Shown: positions 15,974 to 56,099 of the stretch, in pieces
Layout: every line of letters begins with the position of its first letter
Numbering within the stretch: position 1 is the first letter of the stretch
Assembly (NCBI RefSeq): GCF_050920415.1
Contig: NZ_CP169309.1
Strand: one strand, 5' to 3'
DNA: 64,000 nt
Source: Escherichia coli
Lineage (GTDB): Bacteria > Pseudomonadota > Gammaproteobacteria > Enterobacterales > Enterobacteriaceae
Made by a program: the position numbers and the translations under genes
Notes under the pieces: model-generated
What the model saw: the letters and a program-made list of their open reading frames with translations, nothing else
Databases searched by the model: none
What the model was told of the DNA's origin: nothing

Positions 15974-18646
15974 CTACAGCAAGCTCTTGACATAACTGTC
16001 AATGTCGCTGATGTATTTTTCTATTCCTGGAACATCCTTCTCACGAATCAGATGTTCCAGCGTTTCACATAACTGCTTGCCGGGTACCAGATTTAGCATG
16101 GCAAATACGCCTTTAAGACGATGAGCCGTTTGGGCTAACGCAGCAAAGTCACTGGTTGCTGCTTCAGTATACAGCCTCTTAACATCATCCGGTACTGTGT
16201 CTACAAAGAGCGCATAATAGCCGCTGGCATGGAGTTGCGCATTTTCATCTCCGCCCAGAGGCGATTCTGTCACCTCTTCCTGCGCCAGTTGCACTTCAAT
16301 TAATTGTAAGACCGCTTCCTGCATAGCGTTGCTCATATTGAAGTTGACGCACAATTGACCAGGCCCAATTTCCCGTACGCCAGACTCATCATCGCTTAAA
16401 AGCAAGCCAGAGGCAGTAAGATTAGACGGATTATCCGTTAAAAAGATATCATAATCTTGACTAATTAATCTTTCATCGGGTGTGATACAGGTTGCACCCC
16501 AATTTTCTAACTGGCGAGTGACAATATTCCGAATTTCTGCCGAAGTAACATCCACCATTATGCAGACATCATCCAGTAATCGTTCTTCTTCCTCTTCAAC
16601 TTCCGGGTCAGCTGCGAGCATTTTGATATGCACAGAGTAGCGTGTACCAAGCCCATCCCGCGTTTTGATGTTTAAATGACCGCCCAGTTTACGCGCCAGT
16701 TGATCGCTCAACCAGAATGCCAGCGGGTCGGCCTTGCCATAGCGATCGTTTTGGGTCCGGTTGATAAACGGGAAGTGCAAATTATCCATTTCATGAATGC
16801 TTACGCCTTCTCCGGTGTCCAGAATGCGGAACGTCAGGCGGTCTTCGGAGGACTCATCCTGATCAACCTCAAGGGTGATTTTTCCCAATTGCGTTGAGGT
16901 CACGGCATATTGCATCAGTAGTAGCAAAATACGTCGTAAGGCATCGCGATCGCCGCGGCGCATATCGTGTGCTTTCAGATGATTGTTAATCAGCAGTTGC
17001 AGACCTTTACGCTTGATGGCAGGCAATACTGAAGGCACAACTTCATCAATCAAATCCTGCACGGAGAACAGCTCCGTCTCACTTTTCCAGCTATCGTCCG
17101 CAAGCATATTCGCTAACTGTATTTCATCGACCAGCCGCACCAGCACATCTGCCTGATTCGCCAGTTGTTTGCCTTCCGGGGCGTTGAGTTTAGCCGCGCT
17201 CTCCGCCAGGGACTGTGCGGGTTCTTTCAGCGCATCGCCAATGTTTTTCATAAAGGTCATCCGCCCCTGCTGGTTTTTCTCATACAGACGCTGCGCCTGC
17301 TTGAGTTTCTTGTTTACCAGCACTTCGCGATCCTGATCGCGAATAATGAAAATTTGTGTGCGCGGCGCAACCTGGCTGCGGAACATGCGGATCTCATACA
17401 GCTCGTTATTGATCGTCGCCTGAATAATCCCCTGATGCTGTTCCGCCATGGTGGTGATGTTTTGCAGATTTAAATGCGGCAGCAGGTGATCGGCAATTTT
17501 GTTACTTATGACCGTGCGGTTCGATTCCTGATCGTGAACCAGCAGGCCGAGCGGCAGCAGTGAGACTATCTCTTCATTAATTGCCCGTAAAATGCGCAAT
17601 TCGTTATTGACCGCCGTGCTGGGGACGCTTTCTGTACTGCGGCTGGAGAAATGGCGGAATGTGGTATAGCCAAATAACGCCAGCGCCAGCAAACCGATGT
17701 TCAGCAGCAGTGGCAGCAGAATGTTTTGCAACGTATCCAGCAATAAGGTGCCATAAGGAACCTGCCAGACCAGGCGCATATCGGTAGAGTTGAGTGCCGA
17801 GGAGATTTCAATCTTCGTACTGTTAAAGTGGATACTGACGCTATCCGTCCCTTCTTTCTCATTTTCATTGTTTCCCGTTGCCGTCGCGTCTGGCTCAAGG
17901 CGGAAACTGTCCAGCGGCATACCCGGTGGGATCAAATCATTAATCGGCAGATCAAAAGCAACGACCGTTGCCAGATGTCCCGGCTGGTTGAACGTGGTAC
18001 GCAAGGTAAAGTAATGACCGTTCTGCCAGGCCAGGCGGCGCAGGTTAGAAAAACTTTCGCGTTCATCGAGCGCGTTGGCCTGTTGCAACATCTCTGCGCG
18101 ACGTGAATCAACAATGTCGCTGACGGTCGATTCTTTAAATCCGGAGGTGAGATCTTTGAGGGGCAGGGTCGAGATCAGTACCAGACTGTTATCCTGACCA
18201 TTCAGGTAATACATCGACCACGGTACATTTTCTGCGCCCCACAATGTGTCCAGATAGGTGGACATCCGTTGAGTCATCTCAAGCGTTGAGTTGTCGTGAG
18301 AGCCAAAGATTAACGCTTCCGTTTTGCGGCGTGGTTTTTCCAGATAGTAGACATCCTGTTTCAGGCGCGTCTCTTGTAAACCTTCGCCGGAGGAGGGGGA
18401 GGTCGTCGCGGCAATGTTGTCGTAGATCTGCCAGGTCACGTAACGCCAGGTATCGACGCGCTTTTGGATTGCGTGGGTAATGTCGACAATCTGGTAACTT
18501 TTATCTTTCAGCCAGGCGTTAACGGCGCTTTGCACCATTACACCCATCGTCACCAGTAACACAATGATCAACAGTAAAAAGAAGCGGGTAATGCTCCCCG
18601 GTAGGAGTGAAAAGCGGGTCGTGGCCGTTGTCTCTTTCTGACGCAT
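15974..18646 (-). CDS. rcsD: Phosphotransfer protein RcsD (YojN)
   Basis: 890-aa ORF upstream of rcsB on the same strand; C-terminal HPt-like region. Confidence 0.9.
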   Translation of the reverse strand: MRQKETTATTRFSLLPGSITRFFLLLIIVLLVTMGVMVQSAVNAWLKDKSYQIVDITHAIQKRVDTWRYVTWQIYDNIAATTSPSSGEGLQETRLKQDVYYLEKPRRKTEALIFGSHDNSTLEMTQRMSTYLDTLWGAENVPWSMYYLNGQDNSLVLISTLPLKDLTSGFKESTVSDIVDSRRAEMLQQANALDERESFSNLRRLAWQNGHYFTLRTTFNQPGHLATVVAFDLPINDLIPPGMPLDSFRLEPDATATGNNENEKEGTDSVSIHFNSTKIEISSALNSTDMRLVWQVPYGTLLLDTLQNILLPLLLNIGLLALALFGYTTFRHFSSRSTESVPSTAVNNELRILRAINEEIVSLLPLGLLVHDQESNRTVISNKIADHLLPHLNLQNITTMAEQHQGIIQATINNELYEIRMFRSQVAPRTQIFIIRDQDREVLVNKKLKQAQRLYEKNQQGRMTFMKNIGDALKEPAQSLAESAAKLNAPEGKQLANQADVLVRLVDEIQLANMLADDSWKSETELFSVQDLIDEVVPSVLPAIKRKGLQLLINNHLKAHDMRRGDRDALRRILLLLMQYAVTSTQLGKITLEVDQDESSEDRLTFRILDTGEGVSIHEMDNLHFPFINRTQNDRYGKADPLAFWLSDQLARKLGGHLNIKTRDGLGTRYSVHIKMLAADPEVEEEEERLLDDVCIMVDVTSAEIRNIVTRQLENWGATCITPDERLISQDYDIFLTDNPSNLTASGLLLSDDESGVREIGPGQLCVNFNMSNAMQEAVLQLIEVQLAQEEVTESPLGGDENAQLHASGYYALFVDTVPDDVKRLYTEAATSDFAALAQTAHRLKGVFAMLNLVPGKQLCETLEHLIREKDVPGIEKYISDIDSYVKSLL

Positions 18647-19051: not shown

Positions 19052-19370
19052 GGGAGATATTCTAGTTGCGAGTGAAGGTTTTGTTTTGACATTCAGTGCT
19101 GTCAAATACTTAAGAATAAGTTATTGATTTTAACCTTGAATTATTATTGCTTGATGTTAGGTGCTTATTTCGCCATTCCGCAATAATCTTAAAAAGTTCC
19201 CTTGTATTTACATTCTGAAACATCTATAGCGATAAATGAAACATCTTAAAAGTTTTAGTATCATATTCGTGTTGGATTATTCTGCATTTTTGGGGAGAAT
19301 GGACTTGCCGACTGATTAATGAGGGTTAATCAGTATGCAGTGGCATAAAAAAGCAAATAAAGGCATATAA

Positions 19371-20489
<1,119 letters not shown>

Positions 20490-45470: not shown

Positions 45471-45493
45471 TGGGATTTTTGGTCGCACGAGAG
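45471..45493. repeat. Distal att direct repeat of the proL island
   Basis: tgggatttttggtcgcacgagag resembles tgggcgatttggtcggcacgagag at the tRNA 3' end (56281..56304). Confidence 0.55.
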
Positions 45494-45660
45494 TAGTTTA
45501 ATTGAGTGTATAACTAAATGATTTTAAATAATATTCTTTATTCAACTTTTAAATCGTATAACCAAACGTATAACTAAAATAATTTGCTGAAAAAGTGTAC
45601 AATTTCAGCAATAATTGCCCTAGCGACTATCATCCTGCTCCCCGGATTTTTTCCGGTTAA

Positions 45661-47155: not shown

Positions 47156-47315
47156 TGTGCCCCCATCGCGCTGGTTAAGAAAACAAGCTCAGATTTTTTG
47201 TAAAGAATCTGTCACGCTAAAAGATGTCGAACAAAAAACAACCTTCTCCATCATCTTTTTTGCATCGATTACATTAAAAACAACAGGTTACATACATGAT
47301 GATGATGACGATAAA

Positions 47316-47412
47316 ATCACAAAAATGCGCTTTTTTCCGCGCCCGCCCGCCCCGTGTTCATACCCACCCCACCAGGAGGACCCGCAAAAAAGGCGGCTGG
47401 TGCCGCCTTGTT
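47316..47412 (-). repeat. Repeated non-coding element, copy A: terminator hairpin plus GC box
   Basis: Shares a ~38-bp near-identical core (aaaaatgcgc(t/c)tttttccgcgcccgcccgccccgtg) and similar downstream architecture with copy B. Confidence 0.6.
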
Positions 47413-47413
47413 G

Positions 47414-49303
47414 TCATAGTGAATCGGTACCGCCTGATTTGACCATACCGCGATAATCCAGAGCGGCCACACCAGCATCAATACGGACTTTCCAGGCCAC
47501 ACCGTCAACGATGAAACCTTCCTGCTGTTCAAGGTAAGGCTCGTCATTGCCATCAAGATAAGCCACCTCGATTGTGTCCGTTCCCTGTGCGGAAAGCATG
47601 TACCATTGTTTTTCGCTGATATCATCAAGGCGGGGATCGACGATAATATCCAGTAGTTTGTGATACGGGTTAAAGATCCCGCTGTTTTTATCTGCCCCGA
47701 AAGGTGCGGTTGAGTTAATCATCTGCAACGCGCGATCTTCCAGTGCTGCCGGAACTAAAAGGAATTTAGGCGCAATATTCAGCACTTCGCCATTTTTGTC
47801 CTTCTGTGTGCGCATCAGGTGACGTGCTGCACTAAGTCCCGGTGTTGTCAGTCCTGCTTCAATCAGGTTGCTGTGTTTTTTGTCAAACAGCGCTATTCCA
47901 TCAGAAAGTTTTACGTTGCCTGTAAGCACCAGATTAACCAGATTTCCCACCGTTCTTGATGCTGCACGGCCCATAGCCATTGGCACCGTTGATAACTGAT
48001 CAAGGTCATCATTGATTATCGCCTGGCGGGTAATGCTGAAAATATTCCCGTAAGTAGCCAGCGCGATGGGTTCACCGCGATCGCTGGTGGTGATGTATTT
48101 ATATTCTGCCCCTTCCGGCACTTTGTTTAACGTAGAGAAACCATTCAGACCAACGCGGCGGGCTTCACGAAAGTTTGAAAGGGAACCTTTTTTCGTCCAC
48201 TGGCGGAATGTTTCGCCGCTGTGCTCCCAGCCTGCAAGCACTGATTTTTCAGCACCACCAGCAAGGATATCGGTAAAATCGCTGCTGCTGTGGTTGAATG
48301 CCGCGTTTACTATCTGCGAGCGTGTTCCGTAGCTGCCCGTGCTTATACCACGATGGGTTAATGATGCCTGTGCCATATCGAAAAGGCTCATCATGGCGTA
48401 AGGATTACCGCGTTCGGCCCGTTCGTGACCAAGACGCGCATTAAGCCCCTGGCGCATTGCATCGCCGGTTATGTTGCCGTTATCCGTGTACGCGTAGTAA
48501 AGATTTGCGGGGGTGGTTTTATTTGTTGGCGTTGATTCTTTACCCATAGCGAGTAAAAGGCGTTCGCGTGCATTCTCAACGCTACATTCTGAATCAGCAA
48601 GACAACTTATAGCCAGGTCGTTATATCTTCCGTTGAACGTGCCAAACAATTCACGGATGCCGTTAAGTCGTTCCTGTTCGCCACTGCCAGTTTTCTGGCT
48701 GATCATGCTTTTAATTTTTTCCGGCATATTTGAAAAATCTCCGATTCGTTTTGATTCAATTCGGGCCATTGCTGTAATCGCGGGTATAACCTCATCTGCG
48801 AAGCCGTTAGCCTTACACTCATTGCCATCCATCCAGGTTTCCGCCTCCATCATGGCGGTGATTTCCTGTTTGCTCCTGCCCGTTCTTCCGGCGTAGGTTT
48901 CAGCCATCGTGTCGCCCAGCTTGTCCATCAGGTCAGCAAAGCGGCGAACGTCGCCCGACACTCCGGCAGTAACACCACGGGGGGCATGTATCATCATCAT
49001 TGCGTTTTCAGGCATAACGATGTGATCGCCACACATGGCAATAAACGAGGCCATAGAAGCCGCCATGCCTTCAATGTGTACAATTTTCTTTGCCGGATGA
49101 TTTTTCAGGGCGTTATAGATAGCCAGCCCTTCAAAGATGTCGCCACCAGGTGAATGGATGCGAAGATGGATTTCAGACGCATTACCACACGCGTTGATCT
49201 CGTCAGTAAGTGCCGATGCTTTTACACCGTACCCGCCGATCTCGTCATAAATGCGCACATAGACAACATCTGCCATAGCCTTAATGGAAAACCATGTTTT
49301 CAT
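47414..49303 (-). CDS. Prohead protease (ClpP/S14-like) fused to a capsid-like C-terminal domain
   Basis: 629-aa ORF: N-terminal ~180 aa has ClpP-like motifs (GMAASMAS, MMIHAP); C-terminal ~350 aa reads as an HK97-fold major capsid protein, assigned by impression only. Confidence 0.75.
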   Translation of the reverse strand: MKTWFSIKAMADVVYVRIYDEIGGYGVKASALTDEINACGNASEIHLRIHSPGGDIFEGLAIYNALKNHPAKKIVHIEGMAASMASFIAMCGDHIVMPENAMMMIHAPRGVTAGVSGDVRRFADLMDKLGDTMAETYAGRTGRSKQEITAMMEAETWMDGNECKANGFADEVIPAITAMARIESKRIGDFSNMPEKIKSMISQKTGSGEQERLNGIRELFGTFNGRYNDLAISCLADSECSVENARERLLLAMGKESTPTNKTTPANLYYAYTDNGNITGDAMRQGLNARLGHERAERGNPYAMMSLFDMAQASLTHRGISTGSYGTRSQIVNAAFNHSSSDFTDILAGGAEKSVLAGWEHSGETFRQWTKKGSLSNFREARRVGLNGFSTLNKVPEGAEYKYITTSDRGEPIALATYGNIFSITRQAIINDDLDQLSTVPMAMGRAASRTVGNLVNLVLTGNVKLSDGIALFDKKHSNLIEAGLTTPGLSAARHLMRTQKDKNGEVLNIAPKFLLVPAALEDRALQMINSTAPFGADKNSGIFNPYHKLLDIIVDPRLDDISEKQWYMLSAQGTDTIEVAYLDGNDEPYLEQQEGFIVDGVAWKVRIDAGVAALDYRGMVKSGGTDSL

Positions 49304-49494
49304 AGCCAGGCTCCTAACGTTGCCCTGTACCAGTATTCAACCGCGCTGCGTGTGATTTGTCCTTTCGTGGGTACCGGCATACCCGGGTGATTGTCTTTGA
49401 TGAACTGCTGATAGCGTTCGATCTTCTCCATAGTTCCGGCGTCTATGTGTACCGTGGCACTTTTATCCGGCTTTCTGGTGTTGTTCTCTGGCAT
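49300..49494 (-). CDS. Hypothetical small protein coupled to the protease-capsid gene
   Basis: ORF 49300..49527; internal ATG at 49494 has a strong GGAGG RBS; stop overlaps capsid ATG (ATGA). Confidence 0.45.
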   Translation of the reverse strand: MPENNTRKPDKSATVHIDAGTMEKIERYQQFIKDNHPGMPVPTKGQITRSAVEYWYRATLGAWL

Positions 49495-49854
49495 AAATCC
49501 GCCTCCGTTTTGATTAACGGGCATCATTATTGATCGATAAAAGTAATAGATAAATCATTTTCTACCTGAAAATTAGATTATATTTTTTCTGATTATTCTC
49601 AGAGAGGCAAAGCCATTGACGCATTTTTGCTATTGAAGCAATATTAAGACTCGTCATCCTGGCGATAAAAACTCCTTTGTCGTGTAAAAGCGCCTCCGGT
49701 AACAGCAATCGAGGGCGCTTTTTTTTGCGCCTGTTTTTTTGTAAATGTTTTCGGGAACGCTCCAGTGATGAACAAAAAACAACCTGATTCGACACTAAAA
49801 ATTTTTATTCCTCAATATATCAATAACTTATAGTGGTGGTGATGGTGCCATAAA

Positions 49855-49952
49855 AATCAAAAAATGCGCCTTTTTCCGCGCCCGCCCGCCCCGTGGACAG
49901 GCCCACCAAGCCAGGAGTACCTACAAAAAAGCCGGATTGCTCCGGCTGTGTG
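49855..49952 (-). repeat. Repeated non-coding element, copy B
   Basis: See copy A; hairpin gccggattgctccggc plus GC box. Confidence 0.6.
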
Positions 49953-50249: not shown

Positions 50250-50500
50250 GAGTTGTGCCTCCCCTTGTCTACCTTATCTACCTTACTGGCCACCATGCCA
50301 GTAATGGCGCGGCTTTCAGTGGGGTAGAGTGCTTTTATCCACTATCTACCCCGTATCTACCTCCCTGTCTGATTCAGGTAAAATCAGGTAGAGAGGGTAG
50401 ATAGTAGGTAGACAGTAAAAAAAGGCTGTCTACCCAAGTTAATGTACTGAATTAAATGTATTTTTCTTTACTCAGGTAGACAGGGTAGACAGCCATTGCA
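50250..50500. repeat. Iteron array, putative replication origin
   Basis: At least 11 copies of GGTAGA/TCTACC in both orientations within ~250 bp, just 3' of the replication gene. Confidence 0.55.
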
Positions 50501-50505
50501 ACAAA

Positions 50506-52254
50506 TTATAAAAACGCGTCGCAATCGTCTGTTGTTATTGCGTTAGTCTGCGTTACTCCTTTAACTTTCCGCGTAATATATTCATGTCCGTAAACTTTCG
50601 CGGCTGGCTTCATAGCCTTGCCAAAGTCATTTACGTTTAGCGGTTTGCTCCTGCCTGCGTACGCCATAAACGCCAGATAGACGCGGTAAAGGCTGTTTCT
50701 GGTCGTGTACTTCACTGAATCGCCACCGCCGCCCATCATCAGGCCGCGTGCTTCCTCCAGAAAATTCAGGAACTGGCAAAACTCAATAACCGGATCCGTC
50801 TGTTGCTTTATTGCCAGTGCTTCATCACCGTCACGCTGTTCAATGAGTAAAGCCCGTGCCTTTTCAGGGTCGGCAAAGTTCGCCAGCAAGCGGCGGATAA
50901 TGACAGGGATTTCAGCCGCGATCTTTTCCGGTAGCTCCCTGTCTTTTTCTGCCTCGCTTACGATGTTATCGAACCGGAATATCACCCGACGACGTGCCAC
51001 ACCTCCGGCCCGTTCGGTGAATATCATCGGATTGTTATTGGTTGCCAGCACCACCGCCCTGATTACCGCCGTAAAACGCTTTTCATATTTCGGGTTAATT
51101 TCCACGGGGTCGCCGCCCGTGATTTTCTTGATGCCCGTTCCTTCGCCTGTATATTTCTGCTGGTCTGCCAGGACGATAAGACGACTCCCGACAACCTGCG
51201 CACGCCCACCAGCATCATCAAGCGATGTCATTTCAGCGCTTACCGTGTTTTGTTTCCCTGCCAGAAGGCTGGCTATGTGTGTGAATGTACTTTTACCGCT
51301 CCCGCCGTCTCCGGTGGCCTCAATAAACATCTGCCAGTCGTACCGGTTCGCCATAATCATGTACAGCGCGGCACATATACGCATCATCTTGCTCGGGTCT
51401 TTTCCGGCTGCGTGCTCAAGCCATTTATGAAAGTTTGGCGCGTTATCGCGGATGTTCTCCCCGGGTGCTGGTGGCGTGTACTCAATGCCGTTGTGCGTGG
51501 TGATCCAGTTCTCCGGCGTGTGCGGGGAAAATTCCCCCGTTTTCAGGTCAAGCGCACCATTGGCGAACGGCAGCAAATCGCCGGACGGCTCGCCCATTGG
51601 TTCGGCAATAACTTTTAACGCTTCCACGGCGTTATTGATTACGCGCTTGCTGAAAGTGGCCCTGTGCTCTGAATAGATAGCCACCATTTCGCGGCTCAGC
51701 TCCATTGTGCTGACCGGACACCATACCCCGCCGCGCCATACGTGAACGATTTCACTTTCAGGATGCACACAAACGCCATCAAAGCGCTCGGCAAGCAGCT
51801 GCGCGCGCTCACTGTCTGCCATTTGTGCCAGTTGCGTATTTTTCTGCTCCGGCATGGTAAGCCCTGCGGCAATATTTTCACGCTCAGCATTCAGATAGCG
51901 CCGCCAGTTTTCACACTTCTGGACGTGCATTCCTTCGGGGTAAAAATTTGCGTCCTGAATATCTGCCGCCGCCAGCTTCTGACCAATCTTTTTGGTCTCC
52001 ACCAAATCCAGTTCTCCGGCCTGGTACAGCCTTACGCGCTTTTTCCCATCCGGAACAATTTTCAGTGCATCAAGTTCGGCAAGCTGATTTGGCCCAAGCC
52101 ACACAGGCGGCACATTATCGCCGGATGCGGGGCCATCCTGCTCCTGCCATTGTTTCGCGTGCGACCAGGCATCACTACCCGCGAAAATAATTACCTCTGT
52201 GTCTTTGTGTTTTATTCCGCGTGGCTGTTTTTTTACGTTCGGTGCCAGTTTCAT
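50506..52254 (-). CDS. Replication protein: NTPase/helicase-like with Walker A motif (primase-helicase-like)
   Basis: 582-aa ORF with Walker A GDGGSGKST and a putative Walker B (LIVLAD); SF3/D5/P4-alpha-type assignment is by impression. Confidence 0.75.
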   Translation of the reverse strand: MKLAPNVKKQPRGIKHKDTEVIIFAGSDAWSHAKQWQEQDGPASGDNVPPVWLGPNQLAELDALKIVPDGKKRVRLYQAGELDLVETKKIGQKLAAADIQDANFYPEGMHVQKCENWRRYLNAERENIAAGLTMPEQKNTQLAQMADSERAQLLAERFDGVCVHPESEIVHVWRGGVWCPVSTMELSREMVAIYSEHRATFSKRVINNAVEALKVIAEPMGEPSGDLLPFANGALDLKTGEFSPHTPENWITTHNGIEYTPPAPGENIRDNAPNFHKWLEHAAGKDPSKMMRICAALYMIMANRYDWQMFIEATGDGGSGKSTFTHIASLLAGKQNTVSAEMTSLDDAGGRAQVVGSRLIVLADQQKYTGEGTGIKKITGGDPVEINPKYEKRFTAVIRAVVLATNNNPMIFTERAGGVARRRVIFRFDNIVSEAEKDRELPEKIAAEIPVIIRRLLANFADPEKARALLIEQRDGDEALAIKQQTDPVIEFCQFLNFLEEARGLMMGGGGDSVKYTTRNSLYRVYLAFMAYAGRSKPLNVNDFGKAMKPAAKVYGHEYITRKVKGVTQTNAITTDDCDAFL

Positions 52255-52782: not shown

Positions 52783-53011
52783 GGTGCGCCCCTTGAATAT
52801 CTGCGGTAAGAATTTTGCCTGCCTCATTCAGCGCCATATCAGCACTAAGTTGCATAACCGCCAGCGAATGAGGAACGAAAGCCCCTGCATATTCTGTTTC
52901 ACTGGTGGCGTGCTTATGCGCCATGTCAGCAATAACAGAAATATCAATAAGCGCATCCATCAGCGTTTTGATGGCTTCGGCGGCTGCGTCCGGACGGGGG
53001 TTATTGCACAT
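52775..53011 (-). CDS. Hypothetical protein (78 aa), first gene of the replication operon
   Basis: Strong GGAGG RBS 6-7 nt upstream of ATG; faces the divergent operator region. Confidence 0.45.
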   Translation of the reverse strand: MCNNPRPDAAAEAIKTLMDALIDISVIADMAHKHATSETEYAGAFVPHSLAVMQLSADMALNEAGKILTADIQGAHHA

Positions 53012-53289
53012 GGCGCACCTCCTGACGAATACGGGCGGCGAATACCATCACGCAGCCAGCCGGGGATTGCTGGCGGGCTTCCTGTTCGCTGGTGGCCTCG
53101 ATGGTAATCACGCGCGGTTGTGCCGTGCTCAGGGCGATAAAACGCCAGATGTATTTATTCAGGTTGTGCGAATCCCGCCCTTGCGGGTGTGTGGTATGAT
53201 TTCTCATAGCTGCCTCGATACTCTTTCTATCGTTGGTGGTTAGACGCCCTGCATGTGTGCCACCACTGCGGGGCGTTGCGTTTTTTGAT

Positions 53290-53347
53290 GCACACGTGTT
53301 AAGGTGTACACCTACAAAGCAAAAACATAACGCCATAGGTGTACACA
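53290..53347. promoter_or_regulatory. Operator cluster in the divergent control region
   Basis: Palindromes ACACGTGT (53293), GGTGTACACC (53303..53312) and AGGTGTACAC (53338..53346, overlapping the RBS of the plus-strand gene). Confidence 0.5.
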
Positions 53348-53541
53348 TGTCAACAGTTATTAAGCGCGATAAAAAACAAAAAGGCACAGGAAAGACCCCA
53401 CCGTTCCATATGCGTATAGTTCCTGAATTGAAGGAGCAGTTTGATAACGAAGCCAGTAACGATGGAGTAAGTCTTGCCAACTGGCTTAAAGAGTTGGGGC
53501 GCGCCGAACTAAAGCGACGCGGCATTGAACCTAAAGGCTGA
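53347..53541 (+). CDS. Small DNA-binding regulator, putative ribbon-helix-helix (64 aa)
   Basis: ATG with AGGTG RBS; HMRIVPELKEQF strand-like then helical DGVSLANWLKELGRAEL suggests RHH (assigned by impression); divergent from the replication operon. Confidence 0.45.
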   Translation: MSTVIKRDKKQKGTGKTPPFHMRIVPELKEQFDNEASNDGVSLANWLKELGRAELKRRGIEPKG

Positions 53542-54108: not shown

Positions 54109-54315
54109 TTACGCAGCCGTTCCGCGCGCTTCTTCCTCGCGCTCTTTCAGCCAGGCCAGCACTTCATCTTCATACCAGCCAACACGACGCAGACCGATTT
54201 TGAAGCCTTTCGGAAATTTTCCGGCGTTGATCATGTCCTGTAGCGAACTGTCTGCCTTGATGCGCAGAATATTTTTTACTTCCTGACGGGTAAGAATTTT
54301 TCTGATTGTTTCCAC
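54109..54315 (-). CDS. alpA: AlpA-family transcriptional regulator/excisionase-like protein (GTG start)
   Basis: 68-aa ORF with MerR-like HTH (LTRQEVKNILRIKADSSLQDMINAGKFPKGFKIG...); typical neighbour of P4-type integrases. Confidence 0.8.
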   Translation of the reverse strand: METIRKILTRQEVKNILRIKADSSLQDMINAGKFPKGFKIGLRRVGWYEDEVLAWLKEREEEARGTAA

Positions 54316-54384
54316 TATGTTTTACCTCGTTAATCCGGCGTATTCCGGTGATAAATACGGTAAAACAGGGCAGGGCGGGAAAAA

Positions 54385-54420
54385 CAGTACCCACCGTTTT
54401 AAAACGGTACCCACTGTTTT
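54385..54420. promoter_or_regulatory. Putative operator upstream of alpA
   Basis: acaGTACCCACcgtttt aaaacgGTACCCACtgtttt: motif repeated 20 bp apart around a central palindrome. Confidence 0.4.
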
Positions 54421-54485
54421 TTATCTTATTGATTACGCTTTTCTTTCTGCAAAAAAATAGCGACCGCAAGGGGCCGCTATTGTGA

Positions 54486-54728
54486 TTACCGTTTCCACTT
54501 CTTAGGTCGCCCACCGCATTTAAGGCTGGTGGGCCTCAGCACCTTGTCGATGCTTTCAGCCAGATTTTTCGATGCGCCACGCGAGCGCAAAAAACTGACT
54601 ACCTCGTGTTTTGTGGGGGCAGTTGATTTGTCTTCCGGATCGTACGTTGACCAGAATTCACGATTTGCCATTAAGGCCAACTGAAGGCCTTCACCATAGG
54701 CAGGGGATACCTTTTCATTGAAAAACAC
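54486..54728 (-). CDS. Hypothetical protein (80 aa) between integrase and alpA
   Basis: ORF followed by a hairpin/T-run near 54455..54480. Confidence 0.3.
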   Translation of the reverse strand: MFFNEKVSPAYGEGLQLALMANREFWSTYDPEDKSTAPTKHEVVSFLRSRGASKNLAESIDKVLRPTSLKCGGRPKKWKR

Positions 54729-54829: not shown

Positions 54830-56071
54830 TTATACGGCACGGATACCCCTTTTACCACTGGCTATGGTCACTCCGGTTGCTGCGGCCTCTACAAATTCCC
54901 CCCACCAGCGCATAAGCACCACGCGCTTTTCCAGGTAGTTACTTCGGTTATATGCTCGCCTTACCTCGTTCGTGTCCACGTGTGCGAGTGCGGCCTCGAT
55001 TACGTCCGGCTCGAATCCTTCCTCGTTCGCTGCTGTGCTGAATATGGCGCGTAATCCATGAGACACCAGCACGCCAGCGAATCCCATTCGCCGCAATGCT
55101 GCGTTGGCGGTCTGGCTGTTCATAGGCTGCCGTGGGTCTTTCAGGCTAGGGAAAACGTGCTCGCGGTGGTGGCTGATTGGCTTCATGGCCTCCAGTACCG
55201 CCATAGCCTGACTACAAAGCGGGATAACGTGATCACGCCGCATCTTCATGCGTCCGGCGGGGATCGTCCATTGTTGCGCGTCCATGTCGATTTCTTCCCA
55301 GCGTGCTGACGATGCTTCAACCGGACGGGTTACAGTCAGTAGCTGCCATTCAATCAGTAATCTGGTCTGCCGTTCTGTTGCTGATACGGATAAAGCCTGC
55401 ATAAGCTCCGGCAACTGTTCGGGGCGGATTGTTGGCATATGTTTTTTTACAGGGGAGGGGAACGCCTTACGCACATTCATAGCCGGATTGGCATCAATCA
55501 GCCCACTGTTGGCGGCGTAATCCATTACCTCATTAACGCGCTGTAAAACCCGCTTGAGTGTTTCCAGGTTGCCGCGCTCCTTGATGGGTGTAAGCACCTC
55601 AACGAACCTTCGGGCAGTGAGGGTATCTATTGGCGTGTTGCCGATGAACGGGAATACATATTTATCCAGCGAACGCCAGATGTCTTTAATCGTGTTGGGG
55701 GCCAGATTCTGGCTGATTTTCACCTGGTACCATGCCGCCGCCACATTTTCGAACGTGTTCCCTTGTCTTCGGGCCTCTGCCTCTCGTTTTTTCTTCTCAT
55801 GGTCCTGCGGGTCAGTTCCGGCACTGATTAACGTCCTGTACTCGCTACGGCGTTTTCTGGCATCAGCCAGGGAAACATCTTCAAGAGATCCAAAACTCAG
55901 CAATATTCTTTTTTTGTCCGATGGTCGGTAGTAGGAAAATCGCCAGAGTTTTGATCCGGACGGTTTTACCAGGAGAAAAAGCCCACCGCCGTCCTGTAGG
56001 GTGTACTCCTTTTGCGCTGGTCTGGCTGCTTTGATCTGCACTGTGGTTAATGGGGGTGTTTTTCTCGCCAT
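54830..56071 (-). CDS. int: Tyrosine site-specific integrase (P4-type)
   Basis: ORF 54830..56089; start placed at MARKTPPLTT; N-terminal arm-binding-like domain and catalytic HGLR...LAH...Y. Confidence 0.9.
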   Translation of the reverse strand: MARKTPPLTTVQIKAARPAQKEYTLQDGGGLFLLVKPSGSKLWRFSYYRPSDKKRILLSFGSLEDVSLADARKRRSEYRTLISAGTDPQDHEKKKREAEARRQGNTFENVAAAWYQVKISQNLAPNTIKDIWRSLDKYVFPFIGNTPIDTLTARRFVEVLTPIKERGNLETLKRVLQRVNEVMDYAANSGLIDANPAMNVRKAFPSPVKKHMPTIRPEQLPELMQALSVSATERQTRLLIEWQLLTVTRPVEASSARWEEIDMDAQQWTIPAGRMKMRRDHVIPLCSQAMAVLEAMKPISHHREHVFPSLKDPRQPMNSQTANAALRRMGFAGVLVSHGLRAIFSTAANEEGFEPDVIEAALAHVDTNEVRRAYNRSNYLEKRVVLMRWWGEFVEAAATGVTIASGKRGIRAV

Positions 56072-56099
56072 ATGTCTATGATTCCACACGAAAAAACAG

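Follow-up and report, generated by a model that had tools for sequence, protein, structure and literature searches.

Upstream of the alpA gene of a satellite island in Escherichia coli lies a 40-bp intergenic element that consists of two tandem 20-bp inverted repeats, and its pattern of conservation leads us to regard it, with somewhat better than even confidence, as an operator for a regulator of alpA other than AlpA itself. The island is of the type of the phage-inducible chromosomal islands (PICIs) and was found in a 64-kb stretch of contig NZ_CP169309.1 (64,000 nucleotides, hereafter the window). An earlier note on this DNA, made from the letters alone, had pointed to a tandem motif around a palindrome at 54385-54420, centred on the octamer GTACCCAC, and had taken it for a likely control site of alpA and hence of excision. 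The letters of that segment (acaGTACCCACcgttttaaaacgGTACCCACtgtttt on the + strand) and its distances of 70 and 105 nt to the alpA GTG at 54315 proved correct, and the downstream gene is a true member of the AlpA family (PF05930, E=4.5e-8, above the cut-off). The element as a whole extends a little further, over 54381-54420, where the + strand reads AAAACAGTACCCACCGTTTT AAAACGGTACCCACTGTTTT.

The element is made up of two head-to-tail units (54381-54400 and 54401-54420) that are identical at 18 of 20 positions and read AAAACAGTGGGTACCGTTTT and AAAACGGTGGGTACTGTTTT on the − strand, the strand of alpA. Each unit follows the consensus AAAACNGT-N4-ACNGTTTT, an 8-4-8 inverted repeat, and the entire 40 bp form a near-palindrome with a perfect 16-bp palindrome at the junction, the centre of which is GTTTAAAAAC in island clade B. 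Equivalently, the site can be described as four ACNGT pentamers spaced by 9/11/9 bp and flanked by A/T tracts. It is situated 66-105 nt upstream of the alpA start codon and downstream of a strong intrinsic terminator. When the 64-kb window was searched with AAAACNGTACCCACNGTTTT allowing up to three mismatches, the only matches were the two units, against 0.04 expected, and none of 100 shuffled sequences gave two or more. The octamer GTACCCAC by itself occurs seven times in the window (1.07 expected); the five other copies have no common flanks (the one at 49367 falls inside the open reading frame (ORF) 49300-49527) and, sharing no context with the site, were treated as unrelated.

Relatives of the locus were gathered in three ways: four islands found by BLAST that are 75-79% identical overall, 49 contigs of IMG/VR found by pattern match, and 69 loci found by AlpA protein homology, independently of the motif. 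From these relatives, 31 distinct variants of the upstream region were collected through an anchor outside the motif, a block at 54353..54364 whose invariance among the 31 variants holds by construction. Unit 2, the unit nearer to alpA, has 17 of 20 columns invariant, compared with 3 of 30 in the flank between the terminator and unit 1, 3 of 16 in the spacer between unit 2 and TTTACC, and 5 of 16 in the Shine-Dalgarno (SD) region. Variation in unit 2 is limited to G/T at position 9, G/A at position 10 and T/A at position 12, and its GTACCCAC segment is the more constrained one (GTG[G/A]G[T/A]AC). Unit 1 is invariant at positions 1-4, 8, 13, 14 and 16-19 except in one deletion variant, and is variable at positions 6, 9-12 and 20, its centre (9-12) taking the six forms GGGT, GAGT, GGAT, GTAT, TCTA and TATA. 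The octamer that the earlier note had put forward as the key part is thus not the conserved one, since the unit 1 centre varies freely and the invariant parts are the AAAACNGT and ACNGTTTT arms. These arms are kept across clades that are only 75-79% identical overall and whose flanks have diverged to about 50%. Positions 6, 9-12, 15 and 20, which do vary, are those that would be expected to remain uncontacted in an 8-4-8 dimer site. Conserved arms, a free centre in unit 1 and a unit 2 far more constrained than either flank are what a dimer operator would be expected to leave behind.

The placement of the element is equally regular. The two-unit pattern is matched by 49 of the 69 loci collected by AlpA homology, and in these the distance from the end of the motif to the start codon is exactly 67 bp, or 77 bp in one locus in which a 10-bp duplication has made a repeat triplicate. 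Both units are kept in 49 of 53 loci of the family, and the other four are natural variants. Two of these, the IMG/VR contigs L105 and L116, have an exact 20-bp deletion of unit 1 that leaves a single unit (AAAACGGTGGGAACTGTTTTT), and L122 and L127, as well as the separately retrieved L139, have a degenerate left arm in unit 1 (AAAAGGGT in the clade of L139). Unit 2 was never lost among the retrieved loci. In L139, which represents a third island clade, three P4-type iterons (A/T)GTTCACC, to which the P4 alpha protein binds, stand immediately upstream of the motif (1790-1822).

The site is narrowly distributed. Among 5426 complete E. coli genomes, the segment comprising alpA and its upstream region is present in 441, and a 51-bp segment with the motif in 372, always at the same unannotated intergenic spot. 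About 7% of the complete E. coli genomes carry the island family, among them O157:H7, O111, Nissle 1917-type strains and ATCC 25922. A BLAST search with the site found no significant match in 50,697 phage genomes, and scans of IMG/VR with the two-unit pattern and with the unit 2 consensus returned only satellite-sized contigs of the same island family. A relaxed two-unit pattern run over genome contigs found no match in Enterobacterales and seven raw matches in non-enterobacterial genomes; apart from these seven raw matches, the site was found in no species but E. coli.

No consensus promoter accompanies the element on the strand of alpA. A sigma-70 consensus scan of that strand found no sites, and the best score with a position weight matrix (PWM) in all clades was 4.8-7.0, against a median of 7.1-7.5 in shuffled sequences. 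The lack of a recognisable sigma-70 promoter on this strand fits a promoter that needs an additional factor. Moreover, the intergenic region is the only space able to hold the alpA promoter, and its lack of a constitutive promoter fits the behaviour of relatives of the island, in which alpA is silent until a helper phage is induced (PMC6092414, PMC11773190). The earlier suggestion of an alpA control site is thus supported in part, by a phylogenetic footprint such as a control site would leave, in the only suitable place. Its extension to excision was a further inference: AlpA of the PICI EcCICFT073 switches on the island cycle, and int is not under AlpA control (PMC6092414). The hairpin said to end the integrase transcript is indeed a good terminator; it directly follows a conserved small ORF behind int, however, rather than int itself.

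We propose that a two-fold symmetric regulator would occupy unit 2, cooperatively helped by unit 1, either as one dimer per unit or as dimers of the ribbon-helix-helix (RHH) type on the four ACNGT pentamers with their 9/11/9 bp spacing. Once bound, this regulator would set the activity of an otherwise inactive, presumably activator-dependent alpA promoter. The 40 bp would then serve as a lineage-specific input module of the alpA switch, separate from the CRCCGGAWWW repeats described below. Most likely, a factor from the helper phage or the host would use it as an upstream activator site, or an island repressor would use it as its operator. After its synthesis, AlpA would work through repeats next to the SD and at attL, leading to autoregulation and excision, and would turn on the island cycle by analogy with EcCICFT073. 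A more specific version of this proposal is speculative and rather doubtful at present: the paired operator may be the point at which the induction signal enters, either because a factor of the helper phage or of the host docks there or as a repressor-operator module together with the linked 76-80 aa protein encoded by the small ORF. The latter, if true, would provide the Gram-negative counterpart of Stl of the Staphylococcus aureus pathogenicity islands (SaPIs), which was thought to be missing.

Several observations weigh against an operator for a non-AlpA regulator. The sequences are related and represent about three to four lineages, so that counts of invariant columns overstate the number of independent observations; despite the few lineages, the contrast in conservation between site and flanks is large. 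The central G9 and G11 of unit 2 never vary and disturb its dyad symmetry, for which a simple symmetric-dimer model has no explanation, and the natural one-unit variants L105 and L116 indicate that two units are not obligatory. As the searches found the site in no phage genome, the idea of a helper-phage regulator with an identical site in its home genome gains no support. Co-occurrence cannot separate AlpA, the small ORF and Int as candidates because int, small ORF, motif and alpA form one linked block in 53 of 53 contigs. The small ORF has no detectable DNA-binding fold (Foldseek E>2; no helix-turn-helix (HTH) or recognisable fold).

Among the proteins that could bind the site, Int, the small ORF product and AlpA are each encoded in all 53 motif-bearing contigs, and the Icd-like protein in 52. 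The small ORF is restricted to E. coli and is 59-69% identical between island clades, with the conservation pattern of a real protein; RefSeq calls only its C-terminal 61 aa, whereas conservation reaches further upstream (GLQLALM). Its structural model consists of three helices and a basic GGRPKKW tail (predicted local distance difference test score, pLDDT, 77.5), and it has no Pfam, PHROG or PADLOC family and no sequence relative in the PDB. It is a candidate binder by linkage only, and the only candidate from the island besides AlpA, Int and the Icd-like protein. The Arc-like ORF of the island was rejected as the binder since it was detected in only 19 of the 53 motif-bearing islands, and no gene of the CI/Cro type is annotated in the island.

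The foremost rival explanation, which we judge unlikely, is that the 40-bp site is an autoregulatory site of AlpA, with AlpA either activating its own promoter or, like Vis of P4, repressing it. AlpA does activate its promoter in EcCICFT073 (PMC6092414), the motif stands directly upstream of alpA with AlpA present in 53 of 53 motif-bearing islands, and the HTH region of AlpA is well conserved between clades A and B, both of which have the arms. A site of this kind would be retained with the AlpA allele, and this is not what we found. Sixteen related islands (Int 68-80% and AlpA 65-73% identical) all lack the motif, although the recognition helix is nearly the same (ADSSLQDMINAG in this island and SDSAFQDMINAG in P0026, one of the motif-less islands). 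What these islands mostly keep instead is a CCGGAAT-N3-CCGG element near the SD: 11 of the 16 have a CCGG-N-CCGG element immediately 5' of it, in the form CCGGAAT-N3-CCGG(T)AT in eight and as the variant CCGGACAA in three, while the five without it are L096, L097, L125, L126 and the Salmonella locus L017. The 40-bp motif itself contains no CCGGA.

Better suited to AlpA are two sets of direct repeats of the form CRCCGGAWWW, at the SD of alpA and at attL, which lie on the same strand and are phased by 10 bp. The strain O91 RM7190 has three copies of the SD-proximal repeat, and the attL array of clade B consists of three perfect CACCGGA copies. AlpA/Xis-type winged-helix proteins typically use direct repeats phased by about 10 bp, and proteins of the excisionase type work through phased direct repeats on an att arm. 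From the occurrence of such repeats at both the SD and attL we infer that these are the probable boxes of AlpA as excisionase, or recombination directionality factor (RDF), and that a different factor uses the distal palindromic units. The availability of phased direct repeats at the SD, at attL and in EcCICFT073 argues against assigning the 40-bp site to AlpA, and it is these repeats, rather than the palindromic units noted earlier, that look linked to excision and AlpA.

Several sister islands carry other features at the position of the motif, namely seven to eight copies of AAAACTTCCA, ACCTACCAA repeats, ACTTCCA repeats or a long hairpin ACCGTGAGGG...CCCTCACGGT (L017 2700-2960, L096, L125, L126 and L015 2860-2900, from Salmonella and IMG/VR contigs). 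Each of these replacement features follows a different orphan ORF (240-251 aa) between int and alpA. This arrangement suggests that sister islands exchange cassettes of an ORF plus a repeat array upstream of alpA.

The remaining explanations do without a dedicated regulator of alpA. An improbable one is a structural promoter element, i.e., an UP-element, A-tract curvature, or, for an antisense promoter that fires divergently, its -35 and spacer. The site is rich in phased A/T tracts (AAAAA...TTTTAAAA...TTTTT) and the opposite strand holds a candidate TTTAAA-17-TATATT with a PWM score of 10.3 in clade B. This score is within the distribution of shuffled sequences, though, and the antisense -10 is not conserved (TATCTC in most clade A variants and TATCGT in clade C); furthermore, neither an UP-element nor curvature demands the invariant G/C positions C5, G7, C14, G16, G9 and G11.

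Marginally less probable still is that the palindrome acts as RNA or single-stranded DNA, as a second weak terminator or an attenuator in a leader transcribed from upstream. A 59-nt RNA of the region does fold into one long hairpin of -16.6 kcal/mol, with an inner 7-pair stem that was listed as terminator-like in the scan, but the z-score is only -1.85 and 8 of 200 shuffled sequences fold as well. Unlike an intrinsic terminator, the palindrome has AU-rich stems and a U-run within the stem that is followed by CCCGCCC rather than by a U-tract. The pairs between unit 1 position 6 and unit 2 position 15 and between unit 1 position 15 and unit 2 position 6 change without compensation (A-U to G-U to U-U; C-G to A-G), variants left with one unit lose the long hairpin and still persist, and a strong terminator already exists 35 nt upstream. 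Weak energetics and the lack of compensatory changes led us to reject this reading, and Rfam found nothing at gathering score in the motif region. The least probable explanation of all, that a 20-bp segment was recently duplicated in tandem and travels with the island without any function, would agree with slippage as a source of tandem repeats and with the variation in copy number (one unit in L105 and L116), but leaves unexplained the inverted repeat within each unit, the conservation of arms between diverged flanks and the retention of both units in 49 of 53 loci.

The putative operator does not correspond to any known site that we checked. Patterns for LexA, Ogr/delta, the Cox box, IHF, CRP, FNR, DnaA and sigma-54 were searched for in 54316-54485 and none was present, nor were the P4 iteron or the island's own origin iteron GGTAGAYA, which speaks against a replication iteron. 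The region does not contain the SOS box of LexA, CTGT-N8-ACAG, nor even CTG-N10-CAG, the junction of the units being CCGT-N6-ACGG; induction of alpA in EcCICFT073 is likewise SOS-independent (PMC6092414). The TGT-N12-ACA site of the activators P2 Ogr and P4 delta was rejected for the same lack of a match.

The closest characterized system is EcCICFT073 (1377930-1388700 of the CFT073 genome), of which the island studied here is a mosaic relative. Induction of related Gram-negative PICIs is switched at the alpA promoter, and that of EcCICFT073 is activated by AlpA and by the helper phage (PMC6092414). The two islands share the order int, alpA, Icd-like/YlcI zone, DUF4222, primase, origin, PerC and capsid genes, with alpA after int in the same orientation, and several proteins of the zone before the primase are identical between EcCICFT073 and the ATCC 25922 variant of this island. 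They differ in that Int is 25% identical, AlpA matches over only 25 residues, and the int-alpA spacer of EcCICFT073 lacks AAAACNGT-N4-ACNGTTTT units. Similar in layout, EcCICFT073 has its own 10-bp-phased repeats, GRAACAAC upstream and downstream of int and GACACAAY by the alpA SD. Its spacer also contains GGTGTACTGTTTTTTTATACAC (L148 19270-19310), which resembles the right half of unit 2 (GGTGGGTACTGTTTTT) and is one base off the LexA-box-like CTGT-N8-ACAG, having ACAC instead. In the published PICI work that we checked, no operator in the alpA promoter is described.

Other systems resemble the island in part. P4 likewise has a positively controlled, helper-switched promoter, PLL, before its alpA-type gene vis (PMC10111431), and the primase and the Icd-like gene of the island recall P4 and P1. 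The island differs in that 54316-54485 contains neither the Ogr/delta site TGT-N12-ACA nor the P2 Cox box TTAAA[GC]NCA, and instead of sid, psu and delta it has an HK97-type protease-capsid fusion. The adjacent palindromes with conserved outer arms and free centres are reminiscent of lambda OR1-OR2 and of the RHH operators of Arc, Mnt and MetJ, and as in other tandem dimer operators the unit centres are two helical turns apart, with the ACNGT pentamers on one face of the helix; with no CI/Cro-type gene annotated and the Arc-like ORF in 19 of 53 islands, the resemblance is one of architecture only. SaPI Stl would be a functional analogue if alpA is kept repressed at this site, by the small ORF product or a different protein of the island, up to the intervention of a helper protein, but the genes lack the divergent order of stl-str, the small ORF product has no HTH or recognisable fold, and no repressor is known for Gram-negative PICIs (PMC6092414). 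With the AlpA of Pseudomonas aeruginosa only the name is shared. That protein is a Q-like antiterminator of >140 aa that binds a single 6-bp GGGACG between the -35 and -10 (PMC9371919), and the analogy was discarded because both the protein (68-aa PF05930 here) and the site differ.

The island is integrated at the 3' end of tRNA-Pro(GGG), downstream of yejM, and measures about 10.6-10.8 kb between its att repeats (Table 1). It was assigned to the PICIs since int stands at one end by att with alpA downstream (tRNA, int and alpA all on the − strand), the primase gene is followed by an iteron origin, and the island falls in the size class of about 10-15 kb with some capsid genes and no annotated tail or lysis genes. 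This layout agrees with the four-zone organisation described for Gram-negative PICIs (PMC10111431). Helper-phage-dependent induction, replication and packaging are known for the relatives EcCICFT073 and EcCIMP1 (PMC6092414, PMC11773190).

Table 1. Features of the island in and around the alpA upstream region. Positions refer to the window unless stated otherwise.
Feature	Position	Strand	Description
tRNA-Pro(GGG)	56290..56366	-	integration target
att core	tRNA 3' end and ~45484-45496		ctcgtgc(c)gacca
attL-side array	56253..56282	-	CACCGGATAT CACCGGAAAG CACCGAATAA; phased by 10 bp, immediately behind the 3' end of tRNA-Pro
Second attL-side pair	56179..56198	-	CACCGAACAT CACCGGATTT; adjoins the Int arm-type sites
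Int arm-type repeats	56135-56170, 45555-45590, 45495-45530		TTAGTTATACG, doubled; at both island ends
Tyrosine integrase (int)	54830..56089	-	Arm-DNA-bind_3, Phage_int_M, Phage_integrase
Conserved small ORF (76-80 aa)	54486..54728	-	between int and the motif; ends GGRPKKW[KR]; no known family
Intrinsic terminator	54456..54481	-	10 pairs, 5 GC, T7 run; closes the int-small ORF transcript
Operator-like unit 1	54401..54420	-	AAAACAGT-GGGT-ACCGTTTT, 8-4-8 inverted repeat; less constrained unit
Perfect 16-bp palindrome	54393..54408	unstranded	ACCGTTTTAAAACGGT, at the unit 1/unit 2 junction
Operator-like unit 2	54381..54400	-	AAAACGGT-GGGT-ACTGTTTT; core, nearly invariant unit
Conserved block	54353..54364	-	TTTACCGTATTT; contains ACCGTaTTT; invariant also in the BLAST-collected alignment
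Two 10-bp-phased direct repeats	54331..54350	-	CACCGGAATA CGCCGGATTA; just 5' of the alpA SD; 14/19 columns invariant
alpA (68 aa, GTG start)	54109..54315	-	SD GAGG 54324-54327; PF05930 E=4.5e-8
Arc-like ORF	53347-53541	+	convergent with alpA; phrog_228
Icd-like gene	53252..53001	-	
Primase	50506..52254		
Origin (ori) iterons	50266-50491	both orientations	nine GGTAGAYA, immediately 3' of the primase gene
EcCICFT073 GRAACAAC/GACACAAY repeats	17830-17870, 19187-19251, 19443-19490 (L148)		

Besides its Pfam match, the alpA product matches phrog_66 (excisionase/transcriptional regulator) and PDB 8c3t (AlpA family, E=3.8e-5). The ACCGTaTTT in the block at 54353..54364 may be a fifth half-site or part of the promoter. 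The place of the terminator at 54456..54481 is taken in clade B by a terminator of different sequence. The island also encodes a DUF4222 gene, a primase (annotation: DNA primase family protein), PerC, and an HK97-type fusion of a ClpP-like protease and the major capsid protein. The iteron array at 50266-50491 is expected to be the PICI replication origin. Across the island, Rfam gave the tRNA as the only match at gathering score, with no RNA of the C4/CI type.

The 731 bp of the window that were queried are 100% identical to E. coli 08-00022. The offset between the window and the 08-00022 record (L001, NZ_CP013662) is 43099 at alpA and about 43365 at the capsid gene, which means either an indel of about 266 bp relative to that record between the two genes or a closely related strain. 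Elsewhere in the island, a pair of 98-nt repeats that are 79% identical (47311-47408 and 49850-49947) each directly follow an intrinsic terminator on the − strand and hold GGGGCGGGCGGGCGCGG, then an A-run and then GCGCATTTTT(T)G(T)GATTTT(T)AT; these could be a pair of regulated, perhaps late, promoter regions. The 10-bp palindrome GGTGTACACC or a near copy occurs twice at about 53300-53346, between the divergent Arc-like ORF and Icd-like gene, and this pair is likely the operator pair of an immunity-type region.

The 40-bp element is new insofar as it matched no known site that was checked and, judging by the genomes and contigs searched, is confined to one lineage of E. coli islands, and it is of an already familiar kind as a tandem dyad operator in the switch region of a mobile element. 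AlpA is the master activator of these islands and is induced by the helper (PMC6092414), and the PICI papers of 2018, 2023 and 2025 that we checked defined neither the inducer nor the cis-elements of the alpA promoter. The present island family offers a compact and sharply delimited 40-bp candidate input site together with separate candidate AlpA/RDF boxes. The 40-mer could be used as bait for the putative regulator, and the one-unit variants could be used to probe cooperativity. If the paired operator is indeed where the induction signal enters, the differing ORFs and repeat arrays of sister islands would be exchangeable 'sensor' cassettes that set helper specificity, and if such cassettes are truly swapped between sister islands, this would suggest how satellites change the helper phages on which they depend.

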